From positions 8,122,001 to 8,186,000 of the forward strand of contig CM097883.1 in NCBI GenBank assembly GCA_044892505.1: 64,000 nucleotides of DNA, in the 5' to 3' direction. The notes beneath the pieces are model-generated. The model made no database searches. It was not told the DNA's origin and was given only the letters and a program-made list of their open reading frames with translations. Below, piece after piece: positions 17,876-56,247 of this stretch; position 1 is the first letter of the stretch; each line of letters begins with the position of its first letter. The translations under genes and the position numbers were made by a program. This stretch comes from Schmidtea nova. Taxonomy: Eukaryota.

Positions 17876-17881
17876 GCACCT

Positions 17882-20224: not shown

Positions 20225-20263
20225 AACGAGATCGGGTGAATAAAGATTATTATGGTCGTGGAC
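20225..20263 (-). pseudogene. Variant 5S 5' half (nt 1-39) at the E2 5' junction
   Basis: Same three substitutions. Confidence 0.9.
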
Positions 20264-25799: not shown

Positions 25800-27877
25800 T
25801 CATTTATTTTTTGTTGTCGTACATTTGGGTTTTTTGATCTGTCTAGGTGGCAGATCTTGAACTGTACTTTTGCAAAGTTCGACGGCAGATGACGGATCAT
25901 CATCAATATCCGTTGGTAGTTTACGCTTAGGATTCACTGTTTCTGGTGTAGAAGCAATGGGAACAGATTCATCAATAACTACAGCACTTTGGCCAGGGTT
26001 AACAGCCTCGCTGGCAGTATCAGGGTTCAGAAGTGGACTTATCGACTCAAGAAGCCTGGTAATGCACTTACCAACACCTATAGAACAGATCTTTCGGCAA
26101 GACTTTGGTACACGGAAGGAAAATTTATTTTTCAGCAAAAAGCTTTTCTTGTCCCTTACAACAAAGAACAGGAGCCTTTTTGCTTTGATGGTATCAGGAA
26201 TAATCGAGTCAGATTCAAAATCGTTAATTCCATTGGCTATTCTATCAAGAGCCTTTAATTGTTGAGCTTTTTTTGGATAGGATTTCTCAATCTCAACAAG
26301 AAAATTGTTAATTACAGAAATGGTCTCTGGAGAAATTATACTGTTTACCCTGTCAATCTCCTGGGCCAGATGAGATTGCTGAAGCTTAAGAACTCGTTCC
26401 TGGCAGCTAGTACTATAATAAGAGTCTATCGGAATTTCCCTGATCAAAGCCGGAGCCCAGGAGACCAAATCACTACAGCGTAAGGAATTAATATTCTCAA
26501 TGCACATAATGGAGTGCATCAGAAAGCAGTTGCGAAGGTAGTTAAACACATATATATCGAACGACGTTTCAGATTTATATTTTAGGGATCCCTGTAAGTT
26601 TAAAAGATTTAAATAAAAAATTATATTTATTAGTTTTTCAGGAGATTGTGGCTGATTCAACAAATGTCCAAATTCAGTGTCCAAATTTGACATTTCAGTA
26701 AAGTCCAGCAGCCCTAGGTTAAACATTATGTCAGCCGCACCTTCATCCTGCAGTCTGACAGAACTCTGGCAATTTTTGGGCAATTTTATGAATTTACCCC
26801 CCACAAATGAGATCTCTGCAGGAAAGTTTTTAGAAAATTTTAATTCATTTATTAATTTAATTAATAAATTAGGATTTTTATTTATATTTTCAACAAAATA
26901 AAGTTGAGGAATCTCAGGAAAAGATTTCGTCAGCTCTTCCAGCTCAGTACGGGAAAGTTCAGTTGGGTTTTGACTAGTGCTGACATTGGCAGAGACACCA
27001 GTATTAAAAAGATCCAGCAAGAGGAATTCTCCATCACAAAATTTCACCTGCGAATTTATCAAAAAGTTTGGGATTTCACCCTGTTGCTTGAGATCGTGTA
27101 GGATGTTGTTAATTCGGATTTCCCTATCCTTAGCATTTTTAATCACAATAGTTTCAGCAAACTTATTTGTGAGAGCAAATAAAAATTTTTTAATATAGAG
27201 GGAAGCAGGAACAAATTTGTATTCGTTACAGGTAGGCACTATAACGTTAGATCCAATTAAAAAGATGCCCTTATTTGGCTTTTTTATTGCTGGGATAGAT
27301 GGTTTTGAATCAGCTTTCGAAAGATCAACAAGCACACATATGTGGCGATTTCTATAAAACAGCCTTTCAAAACCTGATATCCCCAACGGGTTATCTGATT
27401 TTGATATTTGGCAAAGAATATTATTAATTTTATTAAATTTTTCTTTACTTTCTTTTGATTTTAATAGTTTTTCTATATTTATATTAGTTTTTAAATAATT
27501 TAATTTTTCCCTTTTAGTCAAATGGCGTGGAAAAATAGTTGAAAATACTAAGCCATCTTTTTTATTTTTACTATTGGGGTCTGATTTTTTATTTAAAGAT
27601 TTTTCAACAGGACCAGACCGAGGCTGAAAATTGTTTTCAATTATTGGATTTTGATTTAAATTGGAAATTGGATTATTATCAATTGTAATTTTAAAATTTA
27701 CTAATTTACAATCATTAAAATTTGTATCTTTATTTTCCTTATTTAAAATTATTTTTATTTTAGAAGGGTCAAACTCATCACGGCCCAAACTCTCATCAAG
27801 AATTATCTGCCTAGCAGAAAAAAAATCATTTAATTTATTTTCATTATTTATTCTATTTTTATGTTAATTTCTTCCAT
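25800..27877 (-). pseudogene. ORF1 of E3 with a 139-bp frameshifting deletion shortly after the ATG
   Basis: tctattttta|tgttaatttc at about 27861 versus E4 35631-35790. The remaining 662-codon frame is open. Confidence 0.85.
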
Positions 27878-27987: not shown

Positions 27988-28026
27988 AACGAGATCGGGT
28001 GAATAAAGATTATTATGGTCGTGGAC
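27988..28026 (-). pseudogene. Variant 5S 5' half (nt 1-39) at the E3 5' junction
   Basis: Same three substitutions. Confidence 0.9.
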
Positions 28027-28225: not shown

Positions 28226-28323
28226 AGTCCACAACACCTCGTATTCCCAGGCGGTCACCCATCCAAGTACTAACGAGGCCTTAACCTGCTTAACTTCCGA
28301 GATCGAACGAGATCGGGTGAATC
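28226..28323 (-). pseudogene. 5S 3' half (nt 22-119) at the E4 3' junction
   Basis: Identical junction; retains the whole internal control region. Confidence 0.92.
28306..28322. repeat. Target-site duplication, left copy of E4 (AACGAGATCGGGTGAAT, 5S nt 23-39)
   Basis: The same 17-mer occurs at 35906-35922 and on both sides of every full-length copy. Confidence 0.85.
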
Positions 28324-28931
28324 GAAAAAGTTTTATTTAATAATAAAATTTGAAAATTTACAAGAGGACAATGCTCAACATGGAGCACGCCAAACAGGCA
28401 ATATACAAGAACAAAAGAGTCAGAAAGAAATCAATCAAATCAATGTAATTGTCGAGATATTTTCGACTCAATTGTCATTTGCAACTGCCGGAATTGTCCC
28501 AGGCATTTGATGTGGTTTTCCTTCGGATAATAGCTCCGGCTTAATTCGATATAGCTTTTGATGCATCTGCCAGGTACACGAATGAGATCAGATCGATAAC
28601 ATCAACACAAGAGAGAAGTGTCACGTGTAAGTCGGAAAACGGGCTTCTCGAGCTGTAGCGACAAGTCATCACAGTTAGAGATTAGGCAATTCCAGGCTAA
28701 CGTAATATTTACAGGCATCTTTCTGATCCCAGCTAAATCTCATCAATTCTATCTAAATATTTGCAAGAAAGGGAAATATATATATATAAACATAAATGAT
28801 AATAATTATATATAATAAATCCGGACCTTGGAGAGGGGAATATCTAAAACATAAAATATACTACTTTTATACATCAAGGTAAATGTAACAATGATAAACC
28901 TCAATTGAATAAAAAACAAAGAATATTTACA
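28324..28931 (-). other. 608-nt 3' UTR of E4 with a GC-richer, probably structured core and terminal AATAAA; no poly(A) tail
   Basis: Lies between the ORF2 TAA and the 5S junction. Short inverted repeats such as GTCGA/TCGAC and TGCC/GGCA; AATAAA at 28332-28337. Confidence 0.75.
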
Positions 28932-31900
28932 TTAATTTTGATCTTTAATAAAGAGATTATCATCATCAAAGGTGGGTAGGATACCATTCTTGTGGAAGTA
29001 CCATCGCTTGGCAGAGTGTGCGATGTTACTTATGGCACATTTCTTTAGAAGTCCATCCACCTGGCCTTTCTTTACACCAACCTTTTGAAGGACTTGCGAA
29101 GTTTCTGGAGGAAAAGAGCCAAGAGCACCAATAATACAAGTGTCAAGCTCAACTTTAAAGTCGGGTTTAGCAGCTTGTATATCAGTTTTCAAAGAGTTAT
29201 ATTTTGCCAGATTCAATGAATTTACCCGATCAAAGTGGGTCAATGAATCACTAGGGCATTTCAAATCAACCAGGAAAATTCTTTTACGAGACACGTCCGT
29301 TATAAGCAAATCAACTCGTTCTTTGGAAAGTGGAACAAGTGAGCATGCGTGATCAACTACAACAATCAAGTTTTTATTAGATTGAAGTTGTTTCGCGATA
29401 AGTTTAAGACAAGCGTCATGCCGCTCAGAACCCAGTGTCAGATGTACCTTGCATGATTGGAGTACATGAGAAGAGGTCTCATCATCTTCATGACACCGAC
29501 GACATAGTCTTTTCTCACCTCTGTTATAAGGCTTCGCAAGAGTGGAAAGAGTGTTTGTGCGAGCTCTGTGAATGAAATTCCAGCTAAATTCGGACAATTC
29601 ACTTCGATAAATTGCTTTGTTCACTATCGGTGAAAGTTTTACTGCTGAAGCGATGATGTTGGAAATACAGCTTTTTTCCCATTTGGCCAAGTATGAATCA
29701 CAGAGCATCATGTGTAGTATTTTTGATGTTGTCTGACGAGTGTCAGGAGTTACAATGCAAGTACCACGCTCTGCAGTGGTGATGTAGAGCCATGGTTCTC
29801 GATTCGTGACTGTGAATGTAATGCTAATGTCATGAGTCTTTTCAAAGAAAGCAACCGCAATCCTAGCTCTTTGAAATCGAGTTTTCTTTCCAGAATGGGG
29901 GGAAAGAGACTCTTTACCATTGAGCCAATCAAGACTTTCTTGAAGAGTTGGATTTTTTATCCCAAGACGTGGACTAGTGACAAAAGCCAAAGAGTCAAGA
30001 TTAACTTTCCTCGCAAAGTCACATTTCGACGTGATGAGTCGGAAAAAGTGTGTAATAGTCTGCGTGTGATACTCATCAAGGAGATCAACACAATTTGCTC
30101 CACCATTTTCTGTAGAGTTGTAAAAATAACTCACTTCAGAATGACTTGGCAAAAGCAGCATTTTTCTCAAGTGATTTCTCATTTGGCTGGTGATATTTAC
30201 CGAGAGATTACTATTACCACAAGATTTTGAGAGAGCACTAGTTTTAATCTCTCTGGTTCTGAAAGGAAAGATCAAGCGAGAGTGGATGAAGATCTTGTAG
30301 GCTTTCAGTTTTTGCCAACCAAGCAAATCAGAATCGGCAAGTTTTTTGGTGTCAATTAAAGCTTGTTCAAGAATGTCATATGGACTCTGATCAGTTTCCT
30401 CACCTACTGGCACACCAAGGTACTGGTAGAATTCATTAGACAAGAGCTTTTGAATTTTGACATTATTGATGGAAATTTCGCTGTCAATGTGGATATTTGG
30501 CAGTTGTAAATAGCCACATTTTTCCGGGCGATATTCGAAGCCTATTTCGGTGGCAGTTGTAACAGCAATGTTGACGAGTTTTTGTAAGTCATCTACAGAT
30601 TTAGCAACAATGGCAATGTCGTCAGCGTATGCGAGAATCTTGACAGATGATTCTCCAATAGTAAAAGCATCACAAACTGTACTGGAAACAGCTTCCAGTA
30701 CAGGGTTTATTGCCAAAGCAAACAGAATCATGGAGATGGGACATCCCTGCTTGACACCCTTTTTAATCAGGATGTTAGGAGTTACGATAGGCCCACAACT
30801 ATAAAAGGAGCTAGTGTCAGAGTATAACATTTGCAAGATGGAAGCAAATTCTTCACCAACTCCAATGTACCGGAGTAAGGACCACATGTAATCATGTGGG
30901 ACACTACCAAATGCATCCTTAATATCAAGCCAGGCGATAGATAGAGGACAGCGCTTACTATACTTGGAATGCTCAAGCGCAGCAGACAGAATTGAATTGT
31001 GCTCAACACAACCATCATGTTCAGAACCACCTTTCTGCCCAACATGCAAAAGATTGTTCAAGGTTATCCAGCGTGTAAGGCGAGAGGCAAGGCAGGAAGC
31101 GAATACTTTGTAAATAACAGAGAGTAAGGCAATTGGACGCCAAGACGATACGTCTGCATATTTATTATTTTTGTTAGGCTTAGGAGTTAAAAGGGTTTTA
31201 AAGGCCTTCCAACTGTCAGGTATGGACTTTTCAGTAATGATCTTGTTGAATAAAAAGGCAAGTATATGACCCCCAGGATCTAGACGCAACAAGTCACGAT
31301 ATTGCAATCCATCAATACCAGGACTAGTGTTGTCAGCCTTCCTTAGTTCATACACTACCTCCTTACTCGAGATGCATTGCAGAGGAAGTACTCGTTCAGA
31401 ACGTTTACAGAATACGAATAATTTCTCCCACTGGCCACGGATTGGAGTTTCATGAGAAAAATATTTGACGATATTCTGGAATGTTGGTCGGGTAGGTACA
31501 TCAAAGTTATTGATGACTATGTTGACCGCCGATTTCATGTCCGTGGTAAATTTTTTAATAAGTTTATTTTTGCTGATTTTAGAGGCTCTCGGTCTGGTTC
31601 CCAAGTAAGGTTTTGACAAAGGCTTAAGTTTCTCAGGAAACTGCTCATTAATTGCATAAATAATTTCATTGGTGCTAAAATTTGCCCATTTAATAACAAG
31701 TAATTCAGCATTAGTTATACGCTGTTTGATAGAGATATTTGTAGCAAAGTTATTATCAAGTTTAGCTTTACCTAGACTTTCAAATTTATCATGTTCTTTT
31801 ACGTGAAAGACCAAAGAACTAACTATATTTCCAATCTCACGCAGGTTTAAGTTTATGAGGGGTAAATCCTTTGAGTAATTGTTAATAAAAGAACATAAAA

Positions 31901-33557
31901 GCACTTTACTTATTAGACCTGAGCCGCGGATGTCATGAGGACATTCACAAAAATTTAAAACGCGGCCTGGTGTTTCTTTAATTTCATTTATTTTATTTCT
32001 GAGTATTCGACAGGTTGACATGTAATTGTCGTTATCAGTCAAAGATGTTGGATTGATAAGATAACAAGTATCAACACTATAGTCGAGAATAAGTAAAATT
32101 TCTCGATGTTTCGGAGGTGCAACAATAGCAAAGATGACTTGTGACTTGATGATCCACTCAAAGTTTAAAAATTCGTTTAGGTGCTGAGTGCAATCATCAA
32201 GAATCGCCAAGCACATTGTTGAATTTAGAAGCAAGAATCGATTAGGTAAATTTAAATTATTAAAAAATTTTGTGATGATTTTATCAGTGATTTTAGAATT
32301 TAGTAAATTTAAATTCTGAGAGATCTCATTCGCTTCCCTTAATTTTAATAAATTTAGGGACTCACTGATCTTCGAAATGGATACTTCTTTATTGAAGAAT
32401 AATCTTTCAAGCAACTCAATAAAGACAGATGCAAAGAGAATTGGGTCATCAGAGACGATAGGCCAAAGCTCAATGTTGTGATTAGGTTTGAAGCTAATGT
32501 CCGATGATAGAAAAAACTTATTTAGATAGTCAGTCATATTATCGCTAATACCAAGCAGACGTTCCGAAAGAAGTTTTTCTTGATTGTTGAAGATGTGGCT
32601 AGCACCGTATGCAGTAGAAAAGAGATAAAGGCACCAGTAATTCTCATTTGGGATAACACTTATAACATGGTTAATTCCAAGAAAATGTTTGAAAGTTACA
32701 TTTTCTCTAATGAATGACTCGTTTTGAGCAATCATATTTAATGTCAATTCGTGTGACAGAACCAAGATGTTTTTATGGTCCTTGAACCATTCCGCAATAA
32801 GGGAGGTGACACACGAGTTTCTTTTGAGAAGAAAAATGTGATTGTGTTTATTCACAACTGTTACCTTTTTAGATTGTTTTTTGTCAGTAATCTTTGGTAT
32901 CCCACCCCCAGATGATTTAGGTAATTCACTCATCATGGACAATTGAAATTGGTGGACATCCTTTCTAATGGACTCGATAAAGTCAACAGGAAACTTCTGC
33001 CATTCGCCACTTATCATCATAGCATACGCGCAGATGAAAGGACCACAGTCGTAGTTGTTGTCTTGAAAGACAAAGGATTTGTGTGGATGAAAGAAAACCG
33101 CAGATTTCAGATTAAACAAACGATTCAAAGCAATGTTGGTTTGAAGCGCAGTCGCTTTATTACTAAGTGAATGTCGGTTGTCAAAAATTGGATCAACAAA
33201 GTAAGAAGTCAGCGAGGACTTGCAATACACAAACAAGATCCAGTGAGATTGGTCAATGTTAAGGGGGCACAATAATATTTGCGCTGACAAAACTCTTTCC
33301 GGCATTGGAAAAATATCATCCGAAAGGTTTGCCATTAAAATCTCTATTTGGAAACATTTTACAGGCGCAAATTTAGGGTTACTGATGTGACTTTCTAAAT
33401 AGTTATCAATGTCATCATCAGTGAACCAGACTTTAGGGTTACGTATTATGCTTTGGTTTTTGAAAATATTAACTATATTATTAGGGATAATACTATCTGT
33501 GCTGTCTGCAACAGTCTCGTTGGAGATTGGAACAGATATTGAGACTGGTGCAGGCAC
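28932..33557 (-). CDS. ORF2 of E4: Ulp1/SENP-like cysteine protease + reverse transcriptase + CCHC zinc knuckle + restriction-like endonuclease (1541 codons, no ATG at the start)
   Basis: Protease: SHW (H105), VDP (D122), QDNNYDCG (Q165, C171). RT: SPGIDG, WRPIAL, LDIKDAF, GVKQGCP, YADD (30618-30629), YLG. Knuckle: CRRC-x8-H-x4-C. RLE: RHD, RVD..DLK, AKY. The first codon called is GTG. Confidence 0.95.
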   Translation of the reverse strand: MPAPVSISVPISNETVADSTDSIIPNNIVNIFKNQSIIRNPKVWFTDDDIDNYLESHISNPKFAPVKCFQIEILMANLSDDIFPMPERVLSAQILLCPLNIDQSHWILFVYCKSSLTSYFVDPIFDNRHSLSNKATALQTNIALNRLFNLKSAVFFHPHKSFVFQDNNYDCGPFICAYAMMISGEWQKFPVDFIESIRKDVHQFQLSMMSELPKSSGGGIPKITDKKQSKKVTVVNKHNHIFLLKRNSCVTSLIAEWFKDHKNILVLSHELTLNMIAQNESFIRENVTFKHFLGINHVISVIPNENYWCLYLFSTAYGASHIFNNQEKLLSERLLGISDNMTDYLNKFFLSSDISFKPNHNIELWPIVSDDPILFASVFIELLERLFFNKEVSISKISESLNLLKLREANEISQNLNLLNSKITDKIITKFFNNLNLPNRFLLLNSTMCLAILDDCTQHLNEFLNFEWIIKSQVIFAIVAPPKHREILLILDYSVDTCYLINPTSLTDNDNYMSTCRILRNKINEIKETPGRVLNFCECPHDIRGSGLISKVLLCSFINNYSKDLPLINLNLREIGNIVSSLVFHVKEHDKFESLGKAKLDNNFATNISIKQRITNAELLVIKWANFSTNEIIYAINEQFPEKLKPLSKPYLGTRPRASKISKNKLIKKFTTDMKSAVNIVINNFDVPTRPTFQNIVKYFSHETPIRGQWEKLFVFCKRSERVLPLQCISSKEVVYELRKADNTSPGIDGLQYRDLLRLDPGGHILAFLFNKIITEKSIPDSWKAFKTLLTPKPNKNNKYADVSSWRPIALLSVIYKVFASCLASRLTRWITLNNLLHVGQKGGSEHDGCVEHNSILSAALEHSKYSKRCPLSIAWLDIKDAFGSVPHDYMWSLLRYIGVGEEFASILQMLYSDTSSFYSCGPIVTPNILIKKGVKQGCPISMILFALAINPVLEAVSSTVCDAFTIGESSVKILAYADDIAIVAKSVDDLQKLVNIAVTTATEIGFEYRPEKCGYLQLPNIHIDSEISINNVKIQKLLSNEFYQYLGVPVGEETDQSPYDILEQALIDTKKLADSDLLGWQKLKAYKIFIHSRLIFPFRTREIKTSALSKSCGNSNLSVNITSQMRNHLRKMLLLPSHSEVSYFYNSTENGGANCVDLLDEYHTQTITHFFRLITSKCDFARKVNLDSLAFVTSPRLGIKNPTLQESLDWLNGKESLSPHSGKKTRFQRARIAVAFFEKTHDISITFTVTNREPWLYITTAERGTCIVTPDTRQTTSKILHMMLCDSYLAKWEKSCISNIIASAVKLSPIVNKAIYRSELSEFSWNFIHRARTNTLSTLAKPYNRGEKRLCRRCHEDDETSSHVLQSCKVHLTLGSERHDACLKLIAKQLQSNKNLIVVVDHACSLVPLSKERVDLLITDVSRKRIFLVDLKCPSDSLTHFDRVNSLNLAKYNSLKTDIQAAKPDFKVELDTCIIGALGSFPPETSQVLQKVGVKKGQVDGLLKKCAISNIAHSAKRWYFHKNGILPTFDDDNLFIKDQN

Positions 33558-33563
33558 GCACCT

Positions 33564-35795
33564 TCATTTATTTTTTGTTGTCGTACATTTGGGTTTTTTG
33601 ATCTGTCTAGGTGGCAGATCTTGAACTGTACTTTTGCAAAGTTCGACGGCAGATGACGGATCATCATCAATATCCGTTGGTAGTTTACGCTTAGGATTCA
33701 CTGTTTCTGGTGTAGAAGCAATGGGAACAGATTCATCAATAACTACAGCACTTTGGCCAGGGTTAACAGCCTCGCTGGCAGTATCAGGGTTCAGAAGTGG
33801 ACTTATCGACTCAAGAAGCCTGGTAATGCACTTACCAACACCTATAGAACAGATCTTTCGGCAAGACTTTGGTACACGGAAGGAAAATTTATTTTTCAGC
33901 AAAAAGCTTTTCTTGTCCCTTACAACAAAGAACAGGAGCCTTTTTGCTTTGATGGTATCAGGATTAATCGAGTCAGATTCAAAATCGTTAATTCCATTGG
34001 CTATTCTATCAAGAGCCTTTAATTGTTGAGCTTTTTTTGGATAGGATTTCTCAATCTCAACAAGAAGATTGTTAATTACAGAAATGGTCTCTGGAGAAAT
34101 TATACTGTTTACCCTGTCAATCTCCTGGGCCAGATGAGATTGCTGAAGCTTAAGAACTCGTTCCTGGCAGTCAGTACTATAATAAGAGTCTATCGGAATT
34201 TCCCTGATCAAAGCCCGAGCCCAGGAGACCAAATCACTACAGCGTAAGGAATTAATATTCTCAATGCACATAATGGAGTGCATCAGAAAGCAGTTGCGAA
34301 GGTAGTTAAACACATATATATCGAACGACGTTTCAGATTTATATTTTAGGGATCCCTGTAAGTTTAAAAGATTTAAATAAAAAATTATATTTATTAGTTT
34401 TTCAGGAGATTGTGGCTGATTCAACAAATGTCCAAATTCAGTGTCCGAATTTGACATTTCAGTAAAGTCCAGCAGCCCTAGGTTAAACATTATGTCAGCC
34501 GCACCTTCATCCTGCAGTCTGACAGAGCTCTGGCAATTTTTGGGCAATTTTATGAATTTACCCCCCACAAATGAGATCTCTGCAGGAAAGTTTTTAGAAA
34601 ATTTTAATTCATTTATTAATTTAATTAATAAATTAGGATTTTTATTTATATTTTCAACAAAATAAAGTTGAGGAATCTCAGGAAAAGATTTCGTCAGCTC
34701 TTCCAGCTCAGTACGGGAAAGTTCAGTTGGGTTTTGACTAGTACTGACATTGGCAGAGACACCAGTATTAAAAAGATCCAGCAAGAGGAACTCTCCATCA
34801 CAAAATTTCACCTGCGAATTTATCAAAAAGTTTGGGATTTCACCCTGTTGCTTGAGATCGTGCAGGATGTTGTTAATTCGGATTTCCCTATCCTTAGCAT
34901 TTTTAATCACAATAGTTTCAGCAAACTTATTTGTGAGAGCAAATAAAAATTTTTTAATATAGAGGGAAGCAGGAACAAATTTGTATTCGTTACAGGTAGG
35001 CACTATAACGTTAGATCCAATTAAAAAGATGCCCTTATTTGGCTTTTTTATTGCTGGGATAGATGGTTTTGAATCAGCTTTCGAAAGATCAACAAGCACA
35101 CATATGTGGCGATTTCTATAAAATAGCCTTTCAAAACCTGATATCCCCAACGGATTATCTGATTTTGATATTTGGCAAAGAATATTATTAATTTTATTAA
35201 ATTTATCTTTACTTTCTTTTGATTTTAATAGTTTTTCTATATTTATATTAGTTTTTAAATAATTTAATTTTTCCCTTTTAGTCAAATGGCGTGGAAAAAT
35301 AGTTGAAAATACTGAGCCATCTTTTTTATTTTTACTATTGGGGTCTGATTTTTTATTTAAAGATTTTTTATTTAAAGATTTTTCAACAGGACCAGACCGA
35401 GGCTGAAAATTCTTTTCAATTATTGGATTTTGATTTAAATTGGAAATTGGATTATTATCAATTGTAATTTTAAAATTTACTAATTTACAATCATTAAAAT
35501 TTGTATCTTTATTTTCCTTATTTAAAATTATTTTTATTTTAGAAGGGTCAAACTCATCACGGCCCAAACTCTCATCAAGAATAATCTGCCTAGCAGAAAA
35601 AAAATCATTTAATTTATTTTCATTATTTAATCTATTTTTACTAGAAATATTTTTAATCAAAAGAGGCATATCATTAATACATTTACTAGCATTTGAATAT
35701 TTCAAACTACTTTCAGATTTAATATTTACAAAATATTCATCTGAAATATTCAAATGCTCCAAAAGAAAATTTAACTTACTGTTAATTTCTTCCAT
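33564..35795 (-). CDS. ORF1 of E4: 743-aa protein of unknown function (ATG at 35795, MEEINSK...)
   Basis: Open in E4, E6 and E7. Indels between subfamilies in its variable region keep the frame. Basic C-terminal motifs PKRK and KKPK. The ORF track extends it to a TTG at 35888. Confidence 0.85.
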   Translation of the reverse strand: MEEINSKLNFLLEHLNISDEYFVNIKSESSLKYSNASKCINDMPLLIKNISSKNRLNNENKLNDFFSARQIILDESLGRDEFDPSKIKIILNKENKDTNFNDCKLVNFKITIDNNPISNLNQNPIIEKNFQPRSGPVEKSLNKKSLNKKSDPNSKNKKDGSVFSTIFPRHLTKREKLNYLKTNINIEKLLKSKESKDKFNKINNILCQISKSDNPLGISGFERLFYRNRHICVLVDLSKADSKPSIPAIKKPNKGIFLIGSNVIVPTCNEYKFVPASLYIKKFLFALTNKFAETIVIKNAKDREIRINNILHDLKQQGEIPNFLINSQVKFCDGEFLLLDLFNTGVSANVSTSQNPTELSRTELEELTKSFPEIPQLYFVENINKNPNLLIKLINELKFSKNFPAEISFVGGKFIKLPKNCQSSVRLQDEGAADIMFNLGLLDFTEMSNSDTEFGHLLNQPQSPEKLINIIFYLNLLNLQGSLKYKSETSFDIYVFNYLRNCFLMHSIMCIENINSLRCSDLVSWARALIREIPIDSYYSTDCQERVLKLQQSHLAQEIDRVNSIISPETISVINNLLVEIEKSYPKKAQQLKALDRIANGINDFESDSINPDTIKAKRLLFFVVRDKKSFLLKNKFSFRVPKSCRKICSIGVGKCITRLLESISPLLNPDTASEAVNPGQSAVVIDESVPIASTPETVNPKRKLPTDIDDDPSSAVELCKSTVQDLPPRQIKKPKCTTTKNK
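35349..35378. repeat. 15-bp tandem duplication in ORF1 (encodes SLNKK twice), polymorphic between copies
   Basis: TTTTTTATTTAAAGA x2 in E0-E2, E4 and E6; x1 in E3 and E7. Confidence 0.9.
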
Positions 35796-35905
35796 CAACA
35801 GAGCAGCCAAATCTAAACAAATCTGAAAATCTAAATTTATAAATATATATGCTAAAGATTTATAATTTAAATAAACTATTAAAATCAAAAATTTTAAAAA
35901 TTTTA

Positions 35906-35944
35906 AACGAGATCGGGTGAATAAAGATTATTATGGTCGTGGAC
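35906..35944 (-). pseudogene. Variant 5S 5' half (nt 1-39) at the E4 5' junction; contains the right TSD copy 35906-35922
   Basis: Same three substitutions. Confidence 0.9.
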
Positions 35945-36143: not shown

Positions 36144-36262
36144 AGTCCACAACACCTCGTATTCCCAGGCGGTCACCCATCCAAGTACTAACGAGGCCTT
36201 AACCTGCTTAACTTCCGAGATCGAACGAGATCGGGTGAATCCAGATTAGTATGGTCGTGGAC
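36144..36262 (-). rRNA. 5S_rRNA: 5S rRNA gene
   Basis: Array consensus. Confidence 0.97.
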
Positions 36263-36461
36263 AAAGACTATATTTATTTGGTACTGAAATATATTATCAA
36301 TAATTTTTTTTCTCAATGAATTTCGCCGATTCACCACATCATGTTGAGATAGGCTGAAAAAAAGTAAAAAAATTAATTCAGAACTCACCGAATTAGTCAT
36401 ATCATCTTTTCGAATCGAATATTCATCGAATAATGAAATTCGAATTCGTAATCGACAAAAA

Positions 36462-36580
36462 AGTCCACAACACCTCGTATTCCCAGGCGGTCACCCATCC
36501 AAGTACTAACGAGGCCTTAACCTGCTTAACTTCCGAGATCGAACGAGATCGGGTGAATCCAGATTAGTATGGTCGTGGAC
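36462..36580 (-). rRNA. 5S_rRNA: 5S rRNA gene
   Basis: Array consensus. Confidence 0.97.
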
Positions 36581-36779
36581 AAAGACTATATTTATTTGGT
36601 ACTGAAATATATTATCAATAATTTTTTTTCTCAATGAATTTCGCCGATTCACCACATCATGTTGAGATAGGCTGAAAAAAAGTAAAAAAATTAATTCAGA
36701 ACTCACCGAATTAGTCATATCATCTTTTCGAATCGAATATTCATCGAATAATGAAATTCGAATTCGTAATCGACAAAAA

Positions 36780-36898
36780 AGTCCACAACACCTCGTATTC
36801 CCAGGCGGTCACCCATCCAAGTACTAACGAGGCCTTAACCTGCTTAACTTCCGAGATCGAACGAGATCGGGTGAATCCAGATTAGTATGGTCGTGGAC
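36780..36898 (-). rRNA. 5S_rRNA: 5S rRNA gene
   Basis: Array consensus. Confidence 0.97.
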
Positions 36899-37097
36899 AA
36901 AGACTATATTTATTTGGTACTGAAATATATTATCAATAATTTTTTTTCTCAATGAATTTCGCCGATTCACCACATCATGTTGAGATAGGCTGAAAAAAAG
37001 TAAAAAAATTAATTCAGAACTCACCGAATTAGTCATATCATCTTTTCGAATCGAATATTCATCGAATAATGAAATTCGAATTCGTAATCGACAAAAA

Positions 37098-37216
37098 AGT
37101 CCACAACACCTCGTATTCCCAGGCGGTCACCCATCCAAGTACTAACGAGGCCTTAACCTGCTTAACTTCCGAGATCGAACGAGATCGGGTGAATCCAGAT
37201 TAGTATGGTCGTGGAC
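37098..37216 (-). rRNA. 5S_rRNA: 5S rRNA gene
   Basis: Array consensus. Confidence 0.97.
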
Positions 37217-37415
37217 AAAGACTATATTTATTTGGTACTGAAATATATTATCAATAATTTTTTTTCTCAATGAATTTCGCCGATTCACCACATCATGTTG
37301 AGATAGGCTGAAAAAAAGTAAAAAAATTAATTCAGAACTCACCGAATTAGTCATATCATCTTTTCGAATCGAATATTCATCGAATAATGAAATTCGAATT
37401 CGTAATCGACAAAAA

Positions 37416-37534
37416 AGTCCACAACACCTCGTATTCCCAGGCGGTCACCCATCCAAGTACTAACGAGGCCTTAACCTGCTTAACTTCCGAGATCGAACGA
37501 GATCGGGTGAATCCAGATTAGTATGGTCGTGGAC
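37416..37534 (-). rRNA. 5S_rRNA: 5S rRNA gene
   Basis: Array consensus. Confidence 0.97.
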
Positions 37535-37733
37535 AAAGACTATATTTATTTGGTACTGAAATATATTATCAATAATTTTTTTTCTCAATGAATTTCGCCG
37601 ATTCACCACATCATGTTGAGATAGGCTGAAAAAAAGTAAAAAAATTAATTCAGAACTCACCGAATTAGTCATATCATCTTTTCGAATCGAATATTCATCG
37701 AATAATGAAATTCGAATTCGTAATCGACAAAAA

Positions 37734-37831: not shown

Positions 37832-40480
37832 GAAAAAGTTTTATTTAATAATAAAATTTGAAAATTTACAAGAGGACAATGCTCAACATGGAGCACGCCA
37901 AACAGGCAATATACAAGAACAAAAGAGTCAGAAAGAAATCAATCAAATCAATGTAATTGTCGAGATATTTTCGACTCAATTGTCATTTGCAACTGCCGGA
38001 ATTGTCCCAGGCATTTGATGTGGTTTTCCTTCGGATAATAGCTCCGGCTTAATTCGATATAGCTTTTGATGCATCTGCCAGGTACACGAATGAGATCAGA
38101 TCGATAACATCAACACAAGAGAGAAGTGTCACGTGTAAGTCGGAAAACGGGCTTCTCGAGCTGTAGCGACAAGTCATCACAGTTAGAGATTAGGCAATTC
38201 CAGGCTAACGTAATATTTACAGGCATCTTTCTGATCCCAGCTAAATCTCATCAATTCTATCTAAATATTTGCAAGAAAGGGAAATATATATATATAAACA
38301 TAAATGATAATAATTATATATAATAAATCCGGACCTTGGAGAGGGGAATATCTAAAACATAAAATATACTACTTTTATACATCAAGGTAAATGTAACAAT
38401 GATAAACCTCAATTGAATAAAAAACAAAGAATATTTACATTAATTTTGATCTTTAATAAAGAGATTATCATCATCAAAGGTGGGTAGGATACCATTCTTG
38501 TGGAAGTACCATCGCTTGGCAGAGTGTGCGATGTTACTTATGGCACATTTCTTTAGAAGTCCATCCACCTGGCCTTTCTTTACACCAACCTTTTGAAGGA
38601 CTTGCGAAGTTTCTGGAGGAAAAGAGCCAAGAGCACCAATAATACAAGTGTCAAGCTCAACTTTAAAGTCGGGTTTAGCAGCTTGTATATCAGTTTTCAA
38701 AGAGTTATATTTTGCCAGATTCAATGAATTTACCCGATCAAAGTGGGTCAATGAATCACTAGGGCATTTCAAATCAACCAGGAAAATTCTTTTACGAGAC
38801 ACGTCCGTTATAAGCAAATCAACTCGTTCTTTGGAAAGTGGAACAAGTGAGCATGCGTGATCAACTACAACAATCAAGTTTTTATTAGATTGAAGTTGTT
38901 TCGCGATAAGTTTAAGACAAGCGTCATGCCGCTCAGAACCCAGTGTCAGATGTACCTTGCATGATTGGAGTACATGAGAAGAGGTCTCATCATCTTCATG
39001 ACACCGACGACATAGTCTTTTCTCACCTCTGTTATAAGGCTTCGCAAGAGTGGAAAGAGTGTTTGTGCGAGCTCTGTGAATGAAATTCCAGCTAAATTCG
39101 GACAATTCACTTCGATAAATTGCTTTGTTCACTATCGGTGAAAGTTTTACTGCTGAAGCGATGATGTTGGAAATACAGCTTTTTTCCCATTTGGCCAAGT
39201 ATGAATCACAGAGCATCATGTGTAGTATTTTTGATGTTGTCTGACGAGTGTCAGGAGTTACAATGCAAGTACCACGCTCTGCAGTGGTGATGTAGAGCCA
39301 TGGTTCTCGATTCGTGACTGTGAATGTAATGCTAATGTCATGAGTCTTTTCAAAGAAAGCAACCGCAATCCTAGCTCTTTGAAATCGAGTTTTCTTTCCA
39401 GAATGGGGGGAAAGAGACTCTTTACCATTGAGCCAATCAAGACTTTCTTGAAGAGTTGGATTTTTTATCCCAAGACGTGGACTAGTGACAAAAGCCAAAG
39501 AGTCAAGATTAACTTTCCTCGCAAAGTCACATTTCGACGTGATGAGTCGGAAAAAGTGTGTAATAGTCTGCGTGTGATACTCATCAAGGAGATCAACACA
39601 ATTTGCTCCACCATTTTCTGTAGAGTTGTAAAAATAACTCACTTCAGAATGACTTGGCAAAAGCAGCATTTTTCTCAAGTGATTTCTCATTTGGCTGGTG
39701 ATATTTACCGAGAGATTACTATTACCACAAGATTTTGAGAGAGCACTAGTTTTAATCTCTCTGGTTCTGAAAGGAAAGATCAAGCGAGAGTGGATGAAGA
39801 TCTTGTAGGCTTTCAGTTTTTGCCAACCAAGCAAATCAGAATCGGCAAGTTTTTTGGTGTCAATTAAAGCTTGTTCAAGAATGTCATATGGACTCTGATC
39901 AGTTTCCTCACCTACTGGCACACCAAGGTACTGGTAGAATTCATTAGACAAGAGCTTTTGAATTTTGACATTATTGATGGAAATTTCGCTGTCAATGTGG
40001 ATATTTGGCAGTTGTAAATAGCCACATTTTTCCGGGCGATATTCGAAGCCTATTTCGGTGGCAGTTGTAACAGCAATGTTGACGAGTTTTTGTAAGTCAT
40101 CTACAGATTTAGCAACAATGGCAATGTCGTCAGCGTATGCGAGAATCTTGACAGATGATTCTCCAATAGTAAAAGCATCACAAACTGTACTGGAAACAGC
40201 TTCCAGTACAGGGTTTATTGCCAAAGCAAACAGAATCATGGAGATGGGACATCCCTGCTTGACACCCTTTTTAATCAGGATGTTAGGAGTTACGATAGGC
40301 CCACAACTATAAAAGGAGCTAGTGTCAGAGTATAACATTTGCAAGATGGAAGCAAATTCTTCACCAACTCCAATGTACCGGAGTAAGGACCACATGTAAT
40401 CATGTGGGACACTACCAAATGCATCCTTAATATCAAGCCAGGCGATAGATAGAGGACAGCGCTTACTATACTTGGAATGC
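37832..40480 (-). mobile_element. E5: 5'-truncated copy (2.65 kb), subfamily B
   Basis: Normal 3' end. The sequence stops inside RT at ...cttggaatgc and joins 5S nt 86/87. Confidence 0.93.
38440..40480 (-). pseudogene. C-terminal ORF2 fragment of E5 (from about aa 863: partial RT, CCHC, RLE)
   Basis: 682-aa ORF in the track whose first codons (TTG GAT GGG) come from 5S. Confidence 0.88.
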
Positions 40481-40566
40481 CCATCCAAGTACTAACGAGG
40501 CCTTAACCTGCTTAACTTCCGAGATCGAACGAGATCGGGTGAATCCAGATTAGTATGGTCGTGGAC
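40480..40566 (-). pseudogene. Wild-type 5S 5' fragment (nt 1-87) at the E5 5' junction
   Basis: Has wild-type ccagattagtat, not the junction variant. Confidence 0.9.
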
Positions 40567-40863: not shown

Positions 40864-41471
40864 GAAAAAGTTTTATTTAATAATAAAATTTGAAAATTTA
40901 CAAGAGGACAATGCTCAACATGGAGCACGCCAAACAGGCAATATACAAGAACAAAAGAGTCAGAAAGAAATCAATCAAATCAATGTAATTGTCGAGATAT
41001 TTTCGACTCAATTGTCATTTGCAACTGCCGGAATTGTCCCAGGCATTTGATGTGGTTTTCCTTCGGATAATAGCTCCGGCTTAATTCGATATAGCTTTTG
41101 ATGCATCTGCCAGGTACACGAATGAGATCAGATCGATAACATCAACACAAGAGAGAAGTGTCACGTGTAAGTCGGAAAACGGGCTTCTCGAGCTGTAGCG
41201 ACAAGTCATCACAGTTAGAGATTAGGCAATTCCAGGCTAACGTAATATTTACAGGCATCTTTCTGATCCCAGCTAAATCTCATCAATTCTATCTAAATAT
41301 TTGCAAGAAAGGGAAATATATATATATAAACATAAATGATAATAATTATATATAATAAATCCGGACCTTGGAGAGGGGAATATCTAAAACATAAAATATA
41401 CTACTTTTATACATCAAGGTAAATGTAACAATGATAAACCTCAATTGAATAAAAAACAAAGAATATTTACA

Positions 41472-44400
41472 TTAATTTTGATCTTTAATAAAGAGATTAT
41501 CATCATCAAAGGTGGGTAGGATACCATTCTTGTGGAAGTACCATCGCTTGGCAGAGTGTGCGATGTTACTTATGGCACATTTCTTTAGAAGTCCATCCAC
41601 CTGGCCTTTCTTTACACCAACCTTTTGAAGGACTTGCGAAGTTTCTGGAGGAAAAGAGCCAAGAGCACCAATAATACAAGTGTCAAGCTCAACTTTAAAG
41701 TCGGGTTTAGCAGCTTGTATATCAGTTTTCAAAGAGTTATATTTTGCCAGATTCAATGAATTTACCCGATCAAAGTGGGTCAATGAATCACTAGGGCATT
41801 TCAAATCAACCAGGAAAATTCTTTTACGAGACACGTCCGTTATAAGCAAATCAACTCGTTCTTTGGAAAGTGGAACAAGTGAGCATGCGTGATCAACTAC
41901 AACAATCAAGTTTTTATTAGATTGAAGTTGTTTCGCGATAAGTTTAAGACAAGCGTCATGCCGCTCAGAACCCAGTGTCAGATGTACCTTGCATGATTGG
42001 AGTACATGAGAAGAGGTCTCATCATCTTCATGACACCGACGACATAGTCTTTTCTCACCTCTGTTATAAGGCTTCGCAAGAGTGGAAAGAGTGTTTGTGC
42101 GAGCTCTGTGAATGAAATTCCAGCTAAATTCGGACAATTCACTTCGATAAATTGCTTTGTTCACTATCGGTGAAAGTTTTACTGCTGAAGCGATGATGTT
42201 GGAAATACAGCTTTTTTCCCATTTGGCCAAGTATGAATCACAGAGCATCATGTGTAGTATTTTTGATGTTGTCTGACGAGTGTCAGGAGTTACAATGCAA
42301 GTACCACGCTCTGCAGTGGTGATGTAGAGCCATGGTTCTCGATTCGTGACTGTGAATGTAATGCTAATGTCATGAGTCTTTTCAAAGAAAGCAACCGCAA
42401 TCCTAGCTCTTTGAAATCGAGTTTTCTTTCCAGAATGGGGGGAAAGAGACTCTTTACCATTGAGCCAATCAAGACTTTCTTGAAGAGTTGGATTTTTTAT
42501 CCCAAGACGTGGACTAGTGACAAAAGCCAAAGAGTCAAGATTAACTTTCCTCGCAAAGTCACATTTCGACGTGATGAGTCGGAAAAAGTGTGTAATAGTC
42601 TGCGTGTGATACTCATCAAGGAGATCAACACAATTTGCTCCACCATTTTCTGTAGAGTTGTAAAAATAACTCACTTCAGAATGACTTGGCAAAAGCAGCA
42701 TTTTTCTCAAGTGATTTCTCATTTGGCTGGTGATATTTACCGAGAGATTACTATTACCACAAGATTTTGAGAGAGCACTAGTTTTAATCTCTCTGGTTCT
42801 GAAAGGAAAGATCAAGCGAGAGTGGATGAAGATCTTGTAGGCTTTCAGTTTTTGCCAACCAAGCAAATCAGAATCGGCAAGTTTTTTGGTGTCAATTAAA
42901 GCTTGTTCAAGAATGTCATATGGACTCTGATCAGTTTCCTCACCTACTGGCACACCAAGGTACTGGTAGAATTCATTAGACAAGAGCTTTTGAATTTTGA
43001 CATTATTGATGGAAATTTCGCTGTCAATGTGGATATTTGGCAGTTGTAAATAGCCACATTTTTCCGGGCGATATTCGAAGCCTATTTCGGTGGCAGTTGT
43101 AACAGCAATGTTGACGAGTTTTTGTAAGTCATCTACAGATTTAGCAACAATGGCAATGTCGTCAGCGTATGCGAGAATCTTGACAGATGATTCTCCAATA
43201 GTAAAAGCATCACAAACTGTACTGGAAACAGCTTCCAGTACAGGGTTTATTGCCAAAGCAAACAGAATCATGGAGATGGGACATCCCTGCTTGACACCCT
43301 TTTTAATCAGGATGTTAGGAGTTACGATAGGCCCACAACTATAAAAGGAGCTAGTGTCAGAGTATAACATTTGCAAGATGGAAGCAAATTCTTCACCAAC
43401 TCCAATGTACCGGAGTAAGGACCACATGTAATCATGTGGGACACTACCAAATGCATCCTTAATATCAAGCCAGGCGATAGATAGAGGACAGCGCTTACTA
43501 TACTTGGAATGCTCAAGCGCAGCAGACAGAATTGAATTGTGCTCAACACAACCATCATGTTCAGAACCACCTTTCTGCCCAACATGCAAAAGATTGTTCA
43601 AGGTTATCCAGCGTGTAAGGCGAGAGGCAAGGCAGGAAGCGAATACTTTGTAAATAACAGAGAGTAAGGCAATTGGACGCCAAGACGATACGTCTGCATA
43701 TTTATTATTTTTGTTAGGCTTAGGAGTTAAAAGGGTTTTAAAGGCCTTCCAACTGTCAGGTATGGACTTTTCAGTAATGATCTTGTTGAATAAAAAGGCA
43801 AGTATATGACCCCCAGGATCTAGACGCAACAAGTCACGATATTGCAATCCATCAATACCAGGACTAGTGTTGTCAGCCTTCCTAAGTTCATACACTACCT
43901 CCTTACTCGAGATGCATTGCAGAGTAAGTACTCGTTCAGAACGTTTACAGAATACGAATAATTTCTCCCACTGGCCACGTATTGGAGTTTCATGAGAAAA
44001 ATATTTGACGATATTCTGGAATGTTGGTCGGGTAGGTACATCAAAGTTATTGATGACCATGTTGACCGCCGATTTCATGTCCGTGGTAAATTTTTTAATA
44101 AGTTTATTTTTGCTGATTTTAGAGGCTCTCGGTCTGGTTCCCAAGTAAGGTTTTGACAAAGGCTTAAGTTTCTCAGGAAACTGTTCATTAATTGCATAAA
44201 TAATTTCATTGGTGCTAAAATTTGCCCATTTAATAACAAGTAATTCAGCATTAGTTATACGCTGTTTGATAGAGATATTTGTAGCAAAGTTATTATCAAG
44301 TTTAGCTTTACCTAGACTTTCAAATTTATCATGTTCTTTTACATGAAAGACCAAAGAACTAACTATATTTCCAATCTCACGCAGGTTTAAGTTTATGAGG

Positions 44401-46097
44401 GGTAAATCCCTTGAGTAATTGTTAATAAAAGAACATAAAAGCACTTTACTTATTAGACCTGAGCCGCGGATGTCATGAGGACATTCACAAAAATTTAAAA
44501 CGCGGCCTGGTGTTTCTTTAATTTCATTTATTTTATTTCTGAGTATTCGACAGGTTGACATGTAATTGTCGTTATCAGTCAAAGATGTTGGATTGATAAG
44601 ATAACAAGTATCAACACTATAGTCAAGAATAAGTAAAATTTCTCGATGTTTCGGAGGTGCAACAATAGCAAAGATGACTTGTGACTTGATGATCCACTCA
44701 AAGTTTAAAAATTCGTTTAGGTGCTGAGTGCAATCATCAAGAATCGCCAAGCACATTGTAGAATTTAGAAGCAAGAATCGATTAGGTAAATTTAAATTAT
44801 TAAAAAATTTTGTGATGATTTTATCAGTGATTTTAGAATTTAGTAAATTTAAATTCTGAGAGATCTCATTCGCTTCCCTTAATTTTAATAAATTTAGGGA
44901 CTCACTGATCTTCGAAATGGATACTTCTTTATTGAAGAATAATCTTTCAAGCAACTCAATAAAGACAGATGCAAAGAGAATTGGGTCATCAGAGACGATA
45001 GGCCAAAGCTCAATGTTGTGATTAGGTTTGAAGCTAATGTCCGATGATAGAAAAAACTTATTTAGATAGTCAGTCATATTATCGCTAATACCAAGCAGAC
45101 GTTCCGAAAGAAGTTTTTCTTGATTGTTGAAGATGTGGCTAGCACCGTATGCAGTAGAAAAGAGATAAAGGCACCAGTAATTCTCATTTGGGATAACACT
45201 TATAACATGGTTAATTCCAAGAAAATGTTTGAAAGTGACATTTTCTCTAATGAATGACTCGTTTTGAGCAATCATATTTAATGTCAATTCGTGTGACAGA
45301 ACCAAGATGTTTTTATGGTCCTTGAACCATTCCGCAATAAGGGAGGAGACACACGAGTTTCTTTTGAGAAGAAAAATGTGATTGTGTTTATTCACAACTG
45401 TTACCTTTTTAGATTGTTTTTTGTCAGTAATCTTTGGTATCCCACCCCCAGATGATTTAGGTAATTCACTCATCATGGACAATTGAAATTGGTGGACATC
45501 CTTTCTAATGGACTCGATAAAGTCAACAGGAAACTTCTGCCATTCGCCACTTATCATCATAGCATACGCGCAGATGAAAGGACCACAGTCGTAGTTGTTG
45601 TCTTGAAAGACAAAGGATTTGTGTGGATGAAAGAAAACCGCAGATTTCAGATTAAACAAACGATTCAAAGCAATGTTGGTTTGAAGCGCAGTCGCTTTAT
45701 TACTAAGTGAATGTCGGTTGTCAAAAATTGGATCAACAAAGTAAGAAGTCAGCGAGGACTTGCAATACACAAACAAGATCCAGTGAGATTGGTCAATGTT
45801 AAGGGGGCACAATAATATTTGCGCTGACAAAACTCTTTCCGGCATTGGAAAAATATCATCCGAAAGGTTTGCCCTTAAAATCTCTATTTGGAAACATTTT
45901 ACAGGCGCAAATTTAGGGTTACTGATGTGACTTTCTAAATAGTTATCAATGTCATCATCAGTGAACCAGACTTTAGGGTTACGTATTATGCTTTGGTTTT
46001 TGAAAATATTAACTATATTATTAGGGATAATACTATCTGTGCTGTCTGCAACAGTCTCGTTGGAGATTGGAACAGATATTGAGACTGGTGCAGGCAC
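41472..46097 (-). CDS. ORF2 of E6 (Ulp1-like protease, RT, CCHC, RLE)
   Basis: 1541 codons, same motifs as E4. Confidence 0.95.
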   Translation of the reverse strand: MPAPVSISVPISNETVADSTDSIIPNNIVNIFKNQSIIRNPKVWFTDDDIDNYLESHISNPKFAPVKCFQIEILRANLSDDIFPMPERVLSAQILLCPLNIDQSHWILFVYCKSSLTSYFVDPIFDNRHSLSNKATALQTNIALNRLFNLKSAVFFHPHKSFVFQDNNYDCGPFICAYAMMISGEWQKFPVDFIESIRKDVHQFQLSMMSELPKSSGGGIPKITDKKQSKKVTVVNKHNHIFLLKRNSCVSSLIAEWFKDHKNILVLSHELTLNMIAQNESFIRENVTFKHFLGINHVISVIPNENYWCLYLFSTAYGASHIFNNQEKLLSERLLGISDNMTDYLNKFFLSSDISFKPNHNIELWPIVSDDPILFASVFIELLERLFFNKEVSISKISESLNLLKLREANEISQNLNLLNSKITDKIITKFFNNLNLPNRFLLLNSTMCLAILDDCTQHLNEFLNFEWIIKSQVIFAIVAPPKHREILLILDYSVDTCYLINPTSLTDNDNYMSTCRILRNKINEIKETPGRVLNFCECPHDIRGSGLISKVLLCSFINNYSRDLPLINLNLREIGNIVSSLVFHVKEHDKFESLGKAKLDNNFATNISIKQRITNAELLVIKWANFSTNEIIYAINEQFPEKLKPLSKPYLGTRPRASKISKNKLIKKFTTDMKSAVNMVINNFDVPTRPTFQNIVKYFSHETPIRGQWEKLFVFCKRSERVLTLQCISSKEVVYELRKADNTSPGIDGLQYRDLLRLDPGGHILAFLFNKIITEKSIPDSWKAFKTLLTPKPNKNNKYADVSSWRPIALLSVIYKVFASCLASRLTRWITLNNLLHVGQKGGSEHDGCVEHNSILSAALEHSKYSKRCPLSIAWLDIKDAFGSVPHDYMWSLLRYIGVGEEFASILQMLYSDTSSFYSCGPIVTPNILIKKGVKQGCPISMILFALAINPVLEAVSSTVCDAFTIGESSVKILAYADDIAIVAKSVDDLQKLVNIAVTTATEIGFEYRPEKCGYLQLPNIHIDSEISINNVKIQKLLSNEFYQYLGVPVGEETDQSPYDILEQALIDTKKLADSDLLGWQKLKAYKIFIHSRLIFPFRTREIKTSALSKSCGNSNLSVNITSQMRNHLRKMLLLPSHSEVSYFYNSTENGGANCVDLLDEYHTQTITHFFRLITSKCDFARKVNLDSLAFVTSPRLGIKNPTLQESLDWLNGKESLSPHSGKKTRFQRARIAVAFFEKTHDISITFTVTNREPWLYITTAERGTCIVTPDTRQTTSKILHMMLCDSYLAKWEKSCISNIIASAVKLSPIVNKAIYRSELSEFSWNFIHRARTNTLSTLAKPYNRGEKRLCRRCHEDDETSSHVLQSCKVHLTLGSERHDACLKLIAKQLQSNKNLIVVVDHACSLVPLSKERVDLLITDVSRKRIFLVDLKCPSDSLTHFDRVNSLNLAKYNSLKTDIQAAKPDFKVELDTCIIGALGSFPPETSQVLQKVGVKKGQVDGLLKKCAISNIAHSAKRWYFHKNGILPTFDDDNLFIKDQN

Positions 46098-46103
46098 GCA
46101 CCT

Positions 46104-48335: not shown

Positions 48336-48445
48336 CAACAGAGCAGCCAAATCTAAACAAATCTGAAAATCTAAATTTATAAATATATATGCTAAAGATT
48401 TATAATTTAAATAAACTATTAAAATCAAAAATTTTAAAAATTTTA

Positions 48446-48484
48446 AACGAGATCGGGTGAATAAAGATTATTATGGTCGTGGAC
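48446..48484 (-). pseudogene. Variant 5S 5' half (nt 1-39) at the E6 5' junction
   Basis: Same three substitutions. Confidence 0.9.
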
Positions 48485-51007: not shown

Positions 51008-51615
51008 GAAAAAGTTTTATTTAATAATAAAATTTGAAAATTTACAAGAGGACAATGCTCAACATGGAGCACGCCAAACAGGCAATATACAAGAACAAAA
51101 GAGTCAGAAAGAAATCAATCAAATCAATGTAATTGTCGAGATATTTTCGACTCAATTGTCATTTGCAACTGCCGGAATTGTCCCAGGCATTTGATGTGGT
51201 TTTCCTTCGGATAATAGCTCCGGCTTAATTCGATATAGCTTTTGATGCATCTGCCAGGTACACGAATGAGATCAGATCGATAACATCAACACAAGAGAGA
51301 AGTGTCACGTGTAAGTCGGAAAACGGGCTTCTCGAGCTGTAGCGACAAGTCATCACAGTTAGAGATTAGGCAATTCCAGGCTAACGTAATATTTACAGGC
51401 ATCTTTCTGATCCCAGCTAAATCTCATCAATTCTATCTAAATATTTGCAAGAAAGGGAAATATATATATATAAACATAAATGATAATAATTATATATAAT
51501 AAATCCGGACCTTGGAGAGGGGAATATCTAAAACATAAAATATACTACTTTTATACATCAAGGTAAATGTAACAATGATAAACCTCAATTGAATAAAAAA
51601 CAAAGAATATTTACA

Positions 51616-56241: not shown

Positions 56242-56247
56242 GCACCT

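Follow-up and report, generated by a model that had tools for sequence, protein, structure and literature searches.

Every long 5′ junction between a 7.6-kb non-LTR retrotransposon and a 5S rRNA gene in the window (the whole 64-kb stretch of DNA analysed) carries the same mutated 5S half-gene. Based on the results of our analysis, we lean towards the view that this half-gene and the 9-nt duplication adjoining it represent one junction, which arose a single time as a scar of insertion or repair and was passed on as DNA, not as RNA. Inheritance at the DNA level in the wider sense, comprising capture during insertion plus tandem duplication on the one hand and later conversion on the other, appears to us the probable explanation.

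The mutated 5S half-gene

The half-gene at 35906–35944 lies upstream of element copy V5 and corresponds to 5S nt 1–39 with the substitutions C14A, G21T, and G22T; its nt 22–39 match an 18-bp target duplication. It is followed by a 9-nt tandem duplication of the first bases of the element (35897–35905), found only together with the variant, and by the 7.57-kb body of V5 (28324–35896), whose 5′ end is 43 nt short of the longest copies of the family. Beyond the fixed 3′ junction lies the wild-type downstream 5S half, nt 22–119 (28226–28323), and five intact 318-bp 5S units with wild-type targets occupy 36144–37733, upstream of the variant half. These features, and all others given below with window coordinates, are on the minus strand.

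A search of the window with up to eight mismatches allowed returned 25 matches to 35906–35944, all in a single orientation. Seven were exact copies of the variant: 4389–4427 (V9), 12307–12345 (V8), 20225–20263 (V7), 27988–28026 (V6), 35906–35944 (V5), 48446–48484 (V4), and 58575–58613 (V3). The other 18, namely 17 intact genes and the half-gene at 40528 belonging to the truncated copy E5, all differed from the variant at the positions of C14A, G21T, and G22T, and one of the intact genes showed a fourth change relative to the query. Rfam found 17 full-length 5S genes in the window, scoring 107–114 bits. The first-pass annotation had thus correctly placed the mutated half at all the long junctions of the window (7/7) and in none of the intact genes (0/17) nor at the E5 junction. 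It was also right that the adjoining spacer follows the array consensus: each variant unit aligned with the array unit over 238 nt with exactly three mismatches, so the spacer beside the variant half is unchanged. Two of its descriptions need revision. The junction copies that it called full-length lack 43 nt of the longest 5′ end of the family and bear the 9-nt tandem duplication at the join, and in place of two subfamilies, the nine variant copies of the array represent seven body haplotypes with three different 5′ tips.

Tandem arrays are hard to assemble, and the number or order of the copies could be wrong. However, contigs from three runs (X1, X2, and X4; samples S1–S3 of one study, the kind of sample not being on record and the source sample possibly among them) cross the junction with no differences, which makes an artefact of assembly unlikely, and linked tip alleles 5–40 nt from the join differ between copies. 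We therefore regard homogenization of the junctions during assembly or polishing as very improbable. Run X7, from another organism, matched merely in short, dispersed stretches that fell for the most part in the conserved portion of 5S, and run X5 yielded no match; neither was counted as evidence.

The element and its class

The element lies on the minus strand in the window and has two ORFs, both of which are open in V1–V5. ORF1 of V5 (33564–35795 from the first ATG) has no Pfam match. Its stop-to-stop frame (33564–35927) reaches into the variant half as far as 5S nt 18, which lies 44 codons ahead of the first ATG; this is probably incidental. ORF2 (28932–33563; 1543 aa) encodes an Ulp1-like cysteine protease (Peptidase_C48, E = 5e-6) upstream of a reverse transcriptase (RVT_1, E = 2e-26). 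The protease matched the Ulp1 chain 1euv_A (E = 8.5e-4), and the best solved relatives of ORF2 were R2 proteins (E = 6e-45 over the reverse transcriptase region). Motifs visible by eye at the C-terminus of the translation are taken by us to be a CCHC finger and a restriction-like endonuclease; the zf-RVT profile scored below the cut-off. The closest homologs of ORF2 were 43–61% identical, most of them with the same two Pfam domains. Judged from the predicted protein, this layout of protease, reverse transcriptase, and putative restriction-like endonuclease fits the NeSL clade. No protease-bearing element targeting 5S was found in the literature searched, outside which lay most subscription papers, Repbase, and the supplements of PMC4640811; this blank is no proof of novelty.

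Target sites and 5S classes

Insertions were located by a 30-nt pattern from the 3′ end of the element, which gave 74 exact matches genome-wide: 54 of them read on into a single repeat, 13 lead into 5S, and seven into other sequence. All 13 junctions with 5S resume at nt 22; G21/G22 is therefore the putative first-strand nick, and the join of the element 3′ end lies where the first-pass annotation had put it. Insertion into a specific sequence of a multicopy target is thus borne out twice, by the 13 of 13 5S junctions and by the 54 of 74 3′ ends at a single repeat site. The two targets share eight nucleotides (5S nt 11–18) and GATT after the nick.

The repeat site, the main target of the family, lies in the terminal inverted repeats of a dispersed element of about 14–16 kb (L119–L132; for example G000:C1:5203500-5221000). 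Among the long ORFs of one copy of this element is one for an A32-like ATPase (Pfam Pox_A32, E = 1e-6), and the element is presumably Maverick/Polinton-like. Four of the seven other 3′ ends (L052, L062, L086, and L093) run into tRNA-like halves in or beside tandem tRNA gene arrays, at differing positions and with the shared target motif absent after the join.

Comparison of this array (C2:8.12–8.22 Mb) with those at C1:533–535 Mb, C3:153.5 Mb, and C93 revealed two 5S classes, which differ at nt 23, adjoining the nick. The A23 class has 82 wild-type matches, all in this array, and 10 element 3′ junctions (about 11%), whereas the G23 class has 1563 matches and three junctions (0.2%). The repeat target also has A at the corresponding position, with 54 insertions against at least 1201 empty sites. 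These sequence comparisons suggest that the major (G23) class may largely escape the element; chromatin or amplification of the array are the alternatives for the unequal occupancy.

The nine variant copies

The array spans approximately C2:8.123–8.225 Mb. In the direction of transcription, an edge copy without the variant is followed by 63 intact units, V1, one unit, V2, two units, V3, seven units, V4, E5, five units, V5, V6, V7, V8, V9, and three units. A 22-mer of the variant had nine matches in the 1.25-Gb genome, all at C2:8126398-8197365 (reversed control, 0), and the 9-nt tandem duplication always stood next to it, with exactly the same nine matches. All nine are junctions; an uninserted 5S class with the variant, sought genome-wide, was not found. 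The 43 nt missing from the variant copies are common to old and young dispersed body types. Since the half-gene, the truncation point, and the duplication always occur together and the 43 nt are kept elsewhere, they constitute one derived junction.

Copies V7 (body 12643–20224), V8 (body 4725–12306), and V9 are of the old type. They stand head-to-tail with a period of 7918 bp, are 0–1 substitution apart, and have 44 private substitutions and broken ORFs in common; they are a DNA-level triplication of one old, defective copy, which is the likeliest birthplace of the junction. The body of V9 is deleted from element position ~1947 to 5S nt 57, at about 2481 (region 2419–2512).

V1–V6 have only 0–8 private changes each, and V2 and V4 have no private substitutions. 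The bodies of the younger variant copies are of the currently active type, which at the dispersed locus L022 has a long, non-variant 5′ end. V2 shows no substitutions against L022 in 7547 columns. V3 (young body 51008–58574, with a short V5-like tip) differs from it only in the length of a T-run, one tip allele at position 86 (counted, as below, from 5S nt 1), and one private change. In V4 (young body 40864–48445, V5-like tip of about 0.55 kb), differences extend as far as position 533 and include a 15-nt indel, while in V5 they reach position 4601, with none beyond. V3–V5 thus contain nested tracts of resident sequence anchored at the junction. V1 combines the L022 tip with an edge-type last third; the T-run whose length links V1 and V2 with L022 is unstable, varying between near-identical copies. 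V6 is a mosaic, with tip alleles as in V3 and, at its 3′ end, old-type alleles of the neighbouring V7; it has an internal deletion of about 135–139 nt of ORF1 (region 27709–27863).

Three tip types adjoin the variant, each meeting it no more than about 40 nt from the join. This implies at least two transfers with an exchange point there, an outcome seldom expected if crossing over took place at random along 7.6 kb. The variant copies did not form one clade in a quick tree of 36 rows: five changes were counted, at least two of them forced by the starred branches, and clustering was mild (9 of 500 shuffles were as low). The array has two non-variant junctions, neither of which has two-sided likeness to the variant junction: that of the edge copy, with no 5S upstream, and that of E5 (37832–40566), which has lost about 4.9 kb at its 5′ end and carries a wild-type 5S half, nt 1–87 (40480–40566), with a 66-bp duplication.

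The 5′ ends outside the array

The first-pass annotation had proposed that the mutated segment is the element's own 5′ end, carried in its RNA. We gathered 34 off-array 5′ ends, a non-exhaustive set in which two pairs may be duplicates. Ten were too truncated to call; the 24 informative ends were all of the long type, and none was of the variant type (upper 95% bound about 12%). Seven variant haplotypes and one non-variant in the array against 0/24 outside give a Fisher p of 2e-6, the copies not being fully independent. Because 54 of the 74 insertions lie in the non-5S target, an RNA bearing the variant should have left variant copies there.

The other 5S arrays agree with this. The insertion at C1:534.9 Mb has a wild-type half of nt 1–112, the 5′ fragment L089 has a wild-type half of nt 1–25, and the insertion at C3:153.5 Mb has no 5S half and joins in the spacer; the C93 copy is cut off by the contig end. 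Less weight was given to the absence of the variant from these arrays, as G23 arrays are rarely hit. The joins of the family vary widely, with target duplications of 4, 18, about 33–38, 66, and 91 bp and, elsewhere, deletions instead. The variant and its hallmarks are thus confined to one array, and wild-type 5′ halves, which the annotation itself had named as the case against its proposal, exist at C1:534.9 Mb and L089. Although all nine long junctions with a 5S half in the array are uniform, the variant as an intrinsic 5′ end of the whole family can practically be dismissed: it occurs in no other copy, and the family 5′ end, common to old and young body types, is 43 nt longer. Dispersed full-length copies refute it within the assembly.

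Upstream 5S-array sequence can nevertheless travel with the family to foreign targets. Wild-type flank of this kind is present on five of the 34 off-array copies. L008 carries 5S nt 21–119, spacer, and nt 1–25 inside a 38-bp duplication of the repeat target, a clear case of 5′ transduction of array sequence. This copy (L008/L042, G000:C1:532028584-532032275) is internally deleted, and its upstream 5S unit begins at nt 21–22, the position of the nick. L086 carries wild-type 5S nt 13–25, and L011, L012, and L019 carry 5S-array spacer at the 5′ end. In the last three, the spacer leader meets the long 5′ end of the element at a 4-nt microhomology; as their sequences suggest, these leaders could be deletion products of a junction of the L008/L086 type. 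Source copies for the travelling flank were not found in the assembly. The idea of a 5S-like leader in the element RNA is therefore acceptable for these wild-type flanks and is not supported for the variant, which never appears off the array. The suggestion that the duplication is partly element-encoded holds insofar as nt 22–39 were probably not made afresh with every insertion; as their source, however, the data favour DNA of a resident copy over the element RNA. Junctions that are uniform within a single array do not by themselves establish an RNA-borne leader, and a look at off-target copies is needed.

Origin and spread of the junction

All three substitutions are G:C to T:A changes, and two fall at the nick. 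Neither C14 nor G22 varies in the two natural targets (5S and the repeat), and nt 21 is a purine in them. Since the changes strike positions common to both targets, loss of the regenerated target is plausible, and the variant half would likely be a poor target for the element endonuclease. Re-inserted halves were seen neither among the variant halves (0/9) nor among wild-type ones (0); at an occupancy of 4–11%, less than one event is expected, so these counts have no power on resistance to cutting.

Possible sources of the changes are a repair scar at the nick, decay in an old copy, or a templated patch. The search for a donor of all three covered 1.65 Mb of fetched loci on both strands, much of it redundant. 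The best match was an exact 14-mer containing the three substitutions, about a dozen bases downstream of the 3′ end of L021 (G000:C2:104009915-104009928). This 14-mer has 123 other matches in the genome, and its chance probability, for a match chosen after the fact, lies between about 1e-4 and 6e-3 according to the search space assumed. L021 is young (one private change, against 44 in the oldest variant copies), and the match, possibly due to chance, is therefore kept only as a lead. Other tandem double changes, GG to TT among them, are present in the old copy, and plain decay of this copy is a possible origin of all three changes, although two such events in 39 nt have p ~0.02.

The course of events that we favour would begin with an early insertion that produced the 18-bp duplication, lost 43 nt of the element 5′ end, and duplicated 9 nt; its half-gene would also have gained the three substitutions, including the pair at the nick. 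Active source copies would later give rise to cDNAs primed at wild-type 5S genes of the array. The free 3′ end of such a cDNA would invade a variant copy already resident nearby, since no other template matches the element as well as the 5S spacer. Synthesis would then copy the resident tip, the variant half, and the spacer, so that the new body would acquire the old junction together with more or less of the resident tip. As the cDNA is extended from its 3′ end on the resident copy, exchange near the join follows by construction, and shorter cDNAs would give nested resident tips. Unequal exchange would add tandem copies, and the poor-target half-gene may aid the persistence of the junction. 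If the junction is cut-resistant and no other template spans spacer and element, each new long insertion within the array would acquire it, and it would behave as a selfish unit with homing-like spread. We put forward this part tentatively, as a rather unlikely possibility; equally tentative is the notion that the unit spread over successive element bodies, driven by a retrotransposon that also targets Maverick-like terminal repeats.

Conversion after insertion would give much the same picture. A wild-type half would be re-nicked and repaired from a variant neighbour, and the resistant junction, possibly in a homing-like manner, would sweep the array. Repair with two-sided homology would convert the junction and up to 0.6 kb of tip, conversion from the spacer side gives a similar tip picture, and the confinement to one array and the short nested tips fit equally. 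The changes hit the invariant C14 and G22 and the purine at nt 21, and E5 and the edge copy, which lack two-sided homology, have stayed unconverted. However, V2 and V4 carry the variant despite having no private substitutions, and the array retains not one long junction whose 5S half is unconverted; conversion would thus need to be very rapid. In addition, the wild-type regenerated halves at E5, C1:534.9 Mb, and L089 persist without re-insertion. We consider conversion as the main process rather unlikely. One assembly separates neither the order of events nor copying during insertion from later conversion.

Transmission by RNA would require variant source copies whose co-transcribed upstream sequence gives the cDNA a variant tail that anneals to the next 5S target. 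Such leaders do travel, as the whole 5S unit of L008, nt 13–25 of L086, and the spacer of L011, L012, and L019 show, and this also counts against DNA capture. Both ORFs are open in V1–V5, the earwig R2 element offers a precedent (a 22-bp downstream duplication with three substitutions; PMC3774820), and the poor occupancy of the other 5S class (three junctions per 1563 genes) weakens the argument from other arrays. Against this stand the 24 informative off-array ends, none of variant type in spite of the 54 of 74 insertions in the non-5S target, and the long non-variant 5′ end of the active body type at L022. Moreover, the young variant copies differ by shared tip alleles and hence are not copies of one another, and 5′ junctions as variable as those of this family are tied, in the part of the R2 account available, to RNAs without an upstream leader (PMC3774820). 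Insensitive scans for a ribozyme at the junction gave two chance-level Rfam hits, no candidates with a crude HDV-like descriptor, and a folding z-score of -0.15. Dispersed copies are also mosaic, and the nested tracts could therefore come from template switching between RNAs; but such switching should leave variant ends outside the array. An RNA-borne variant leader is, in our opinion, unlikely, more so than conversion.

Comparison with known systems

For non-LTR retrotransposons, attachment of the 5′ end to the target is still an open question, for which this array offers a naturally marked record. The presence of the same junction on old as well as very young bodies, with nested tips, suggests that resident copies can serve as repair templates. 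Cases similar to the copied junction are known for R1 and R2 elements. Even if true, the RNA-leader reading has a precedent in R2, and neither it nor inheritance as DNA is categorically new. The family itself, with its protease, its two targets at 5S nt 22 and in a second repeat, and its unequal occupancy of 5S classes, may prove more useful than the junction.

The closest parallel is R2 of the earwig Forficula auricularia, all junctions of which, as far as the consulted part of the report goes, have a 22-bp downstream target duplication with three substitutions; this species-wide junction was attributed to an HDV-like ribozyme that cleaves the rRNA at an upstream position, and variable R2 5′ junctions were linked to RNAs lacking any leader upstream (Eickbush, Burke and Eickbush 2013; PMC3774820). 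Our case resembles it in the uniform 5′ junction, the duplicated target from downstream of the nick, and the three substitutions. Unlike it, the junction is confined to one array, the junctions of the family are variable, and the insensitive scans revealed no ribozyme; the two defining features in that part of the earwig account, uniformity across the family and presence on off-target copies, are absent here.

R1 is an APE-type element of 28S rDNA. In D. melanogaster, identical ISR junctions between tandem-like R1 copies were read as amplification of one event, off-target copies served to test whether target sequence rides on the RNA, and regenerated duplications are known to receive further insertions (Stage and Eickbush 2009; PMC2718515, consulted in part). 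The same source describes little recombination between R1 subfamilies in rDNA and few duplicated truncated copies, and DNA-level exchange as extensive as ours is therefore not the rule there. Both cases show one aberrant junction amplified, but in the present array the junction also moves between bodies, with at least three tip haplotypes.

The domain set, with its putative endonuclease, and the specificity for multicopy RNA genes agree with the NeSL clade, in which, including the flatworm R5/LIN group, an Ulp1-like protease is combined with reverse transcriptase and restriction-like endonuclease (Kojima and Jurka 2015; PMC4640811). Targets named in its main text are 28S, tRNA-Arg, tRNA-Glu, tRNA-Pro, U2, spliced leader, and microsatellites, and "5S rRNA" has no occurrence there (the supplements, with target lists, aside). 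The family described here departs from this list: it inserts at 5S nt 22, in the terminal repeat of a large dispersed element, and in some tRNA genes.

Mutsu, a LINE of a different lineage (Tx1/L1-type with APE endonuclease), also inserts into 5S genes. In zebrafish, occupancy by this 5S-specific element varies between 5S classes with unlike target-site sequences (Locati et al. 2017; PMC5340908). The part of that account available to us describes no variant junction of comparable kind, and the likeness between Mutsu and the present family lies in 5S targeting with unequal occupancy of 5S classes.
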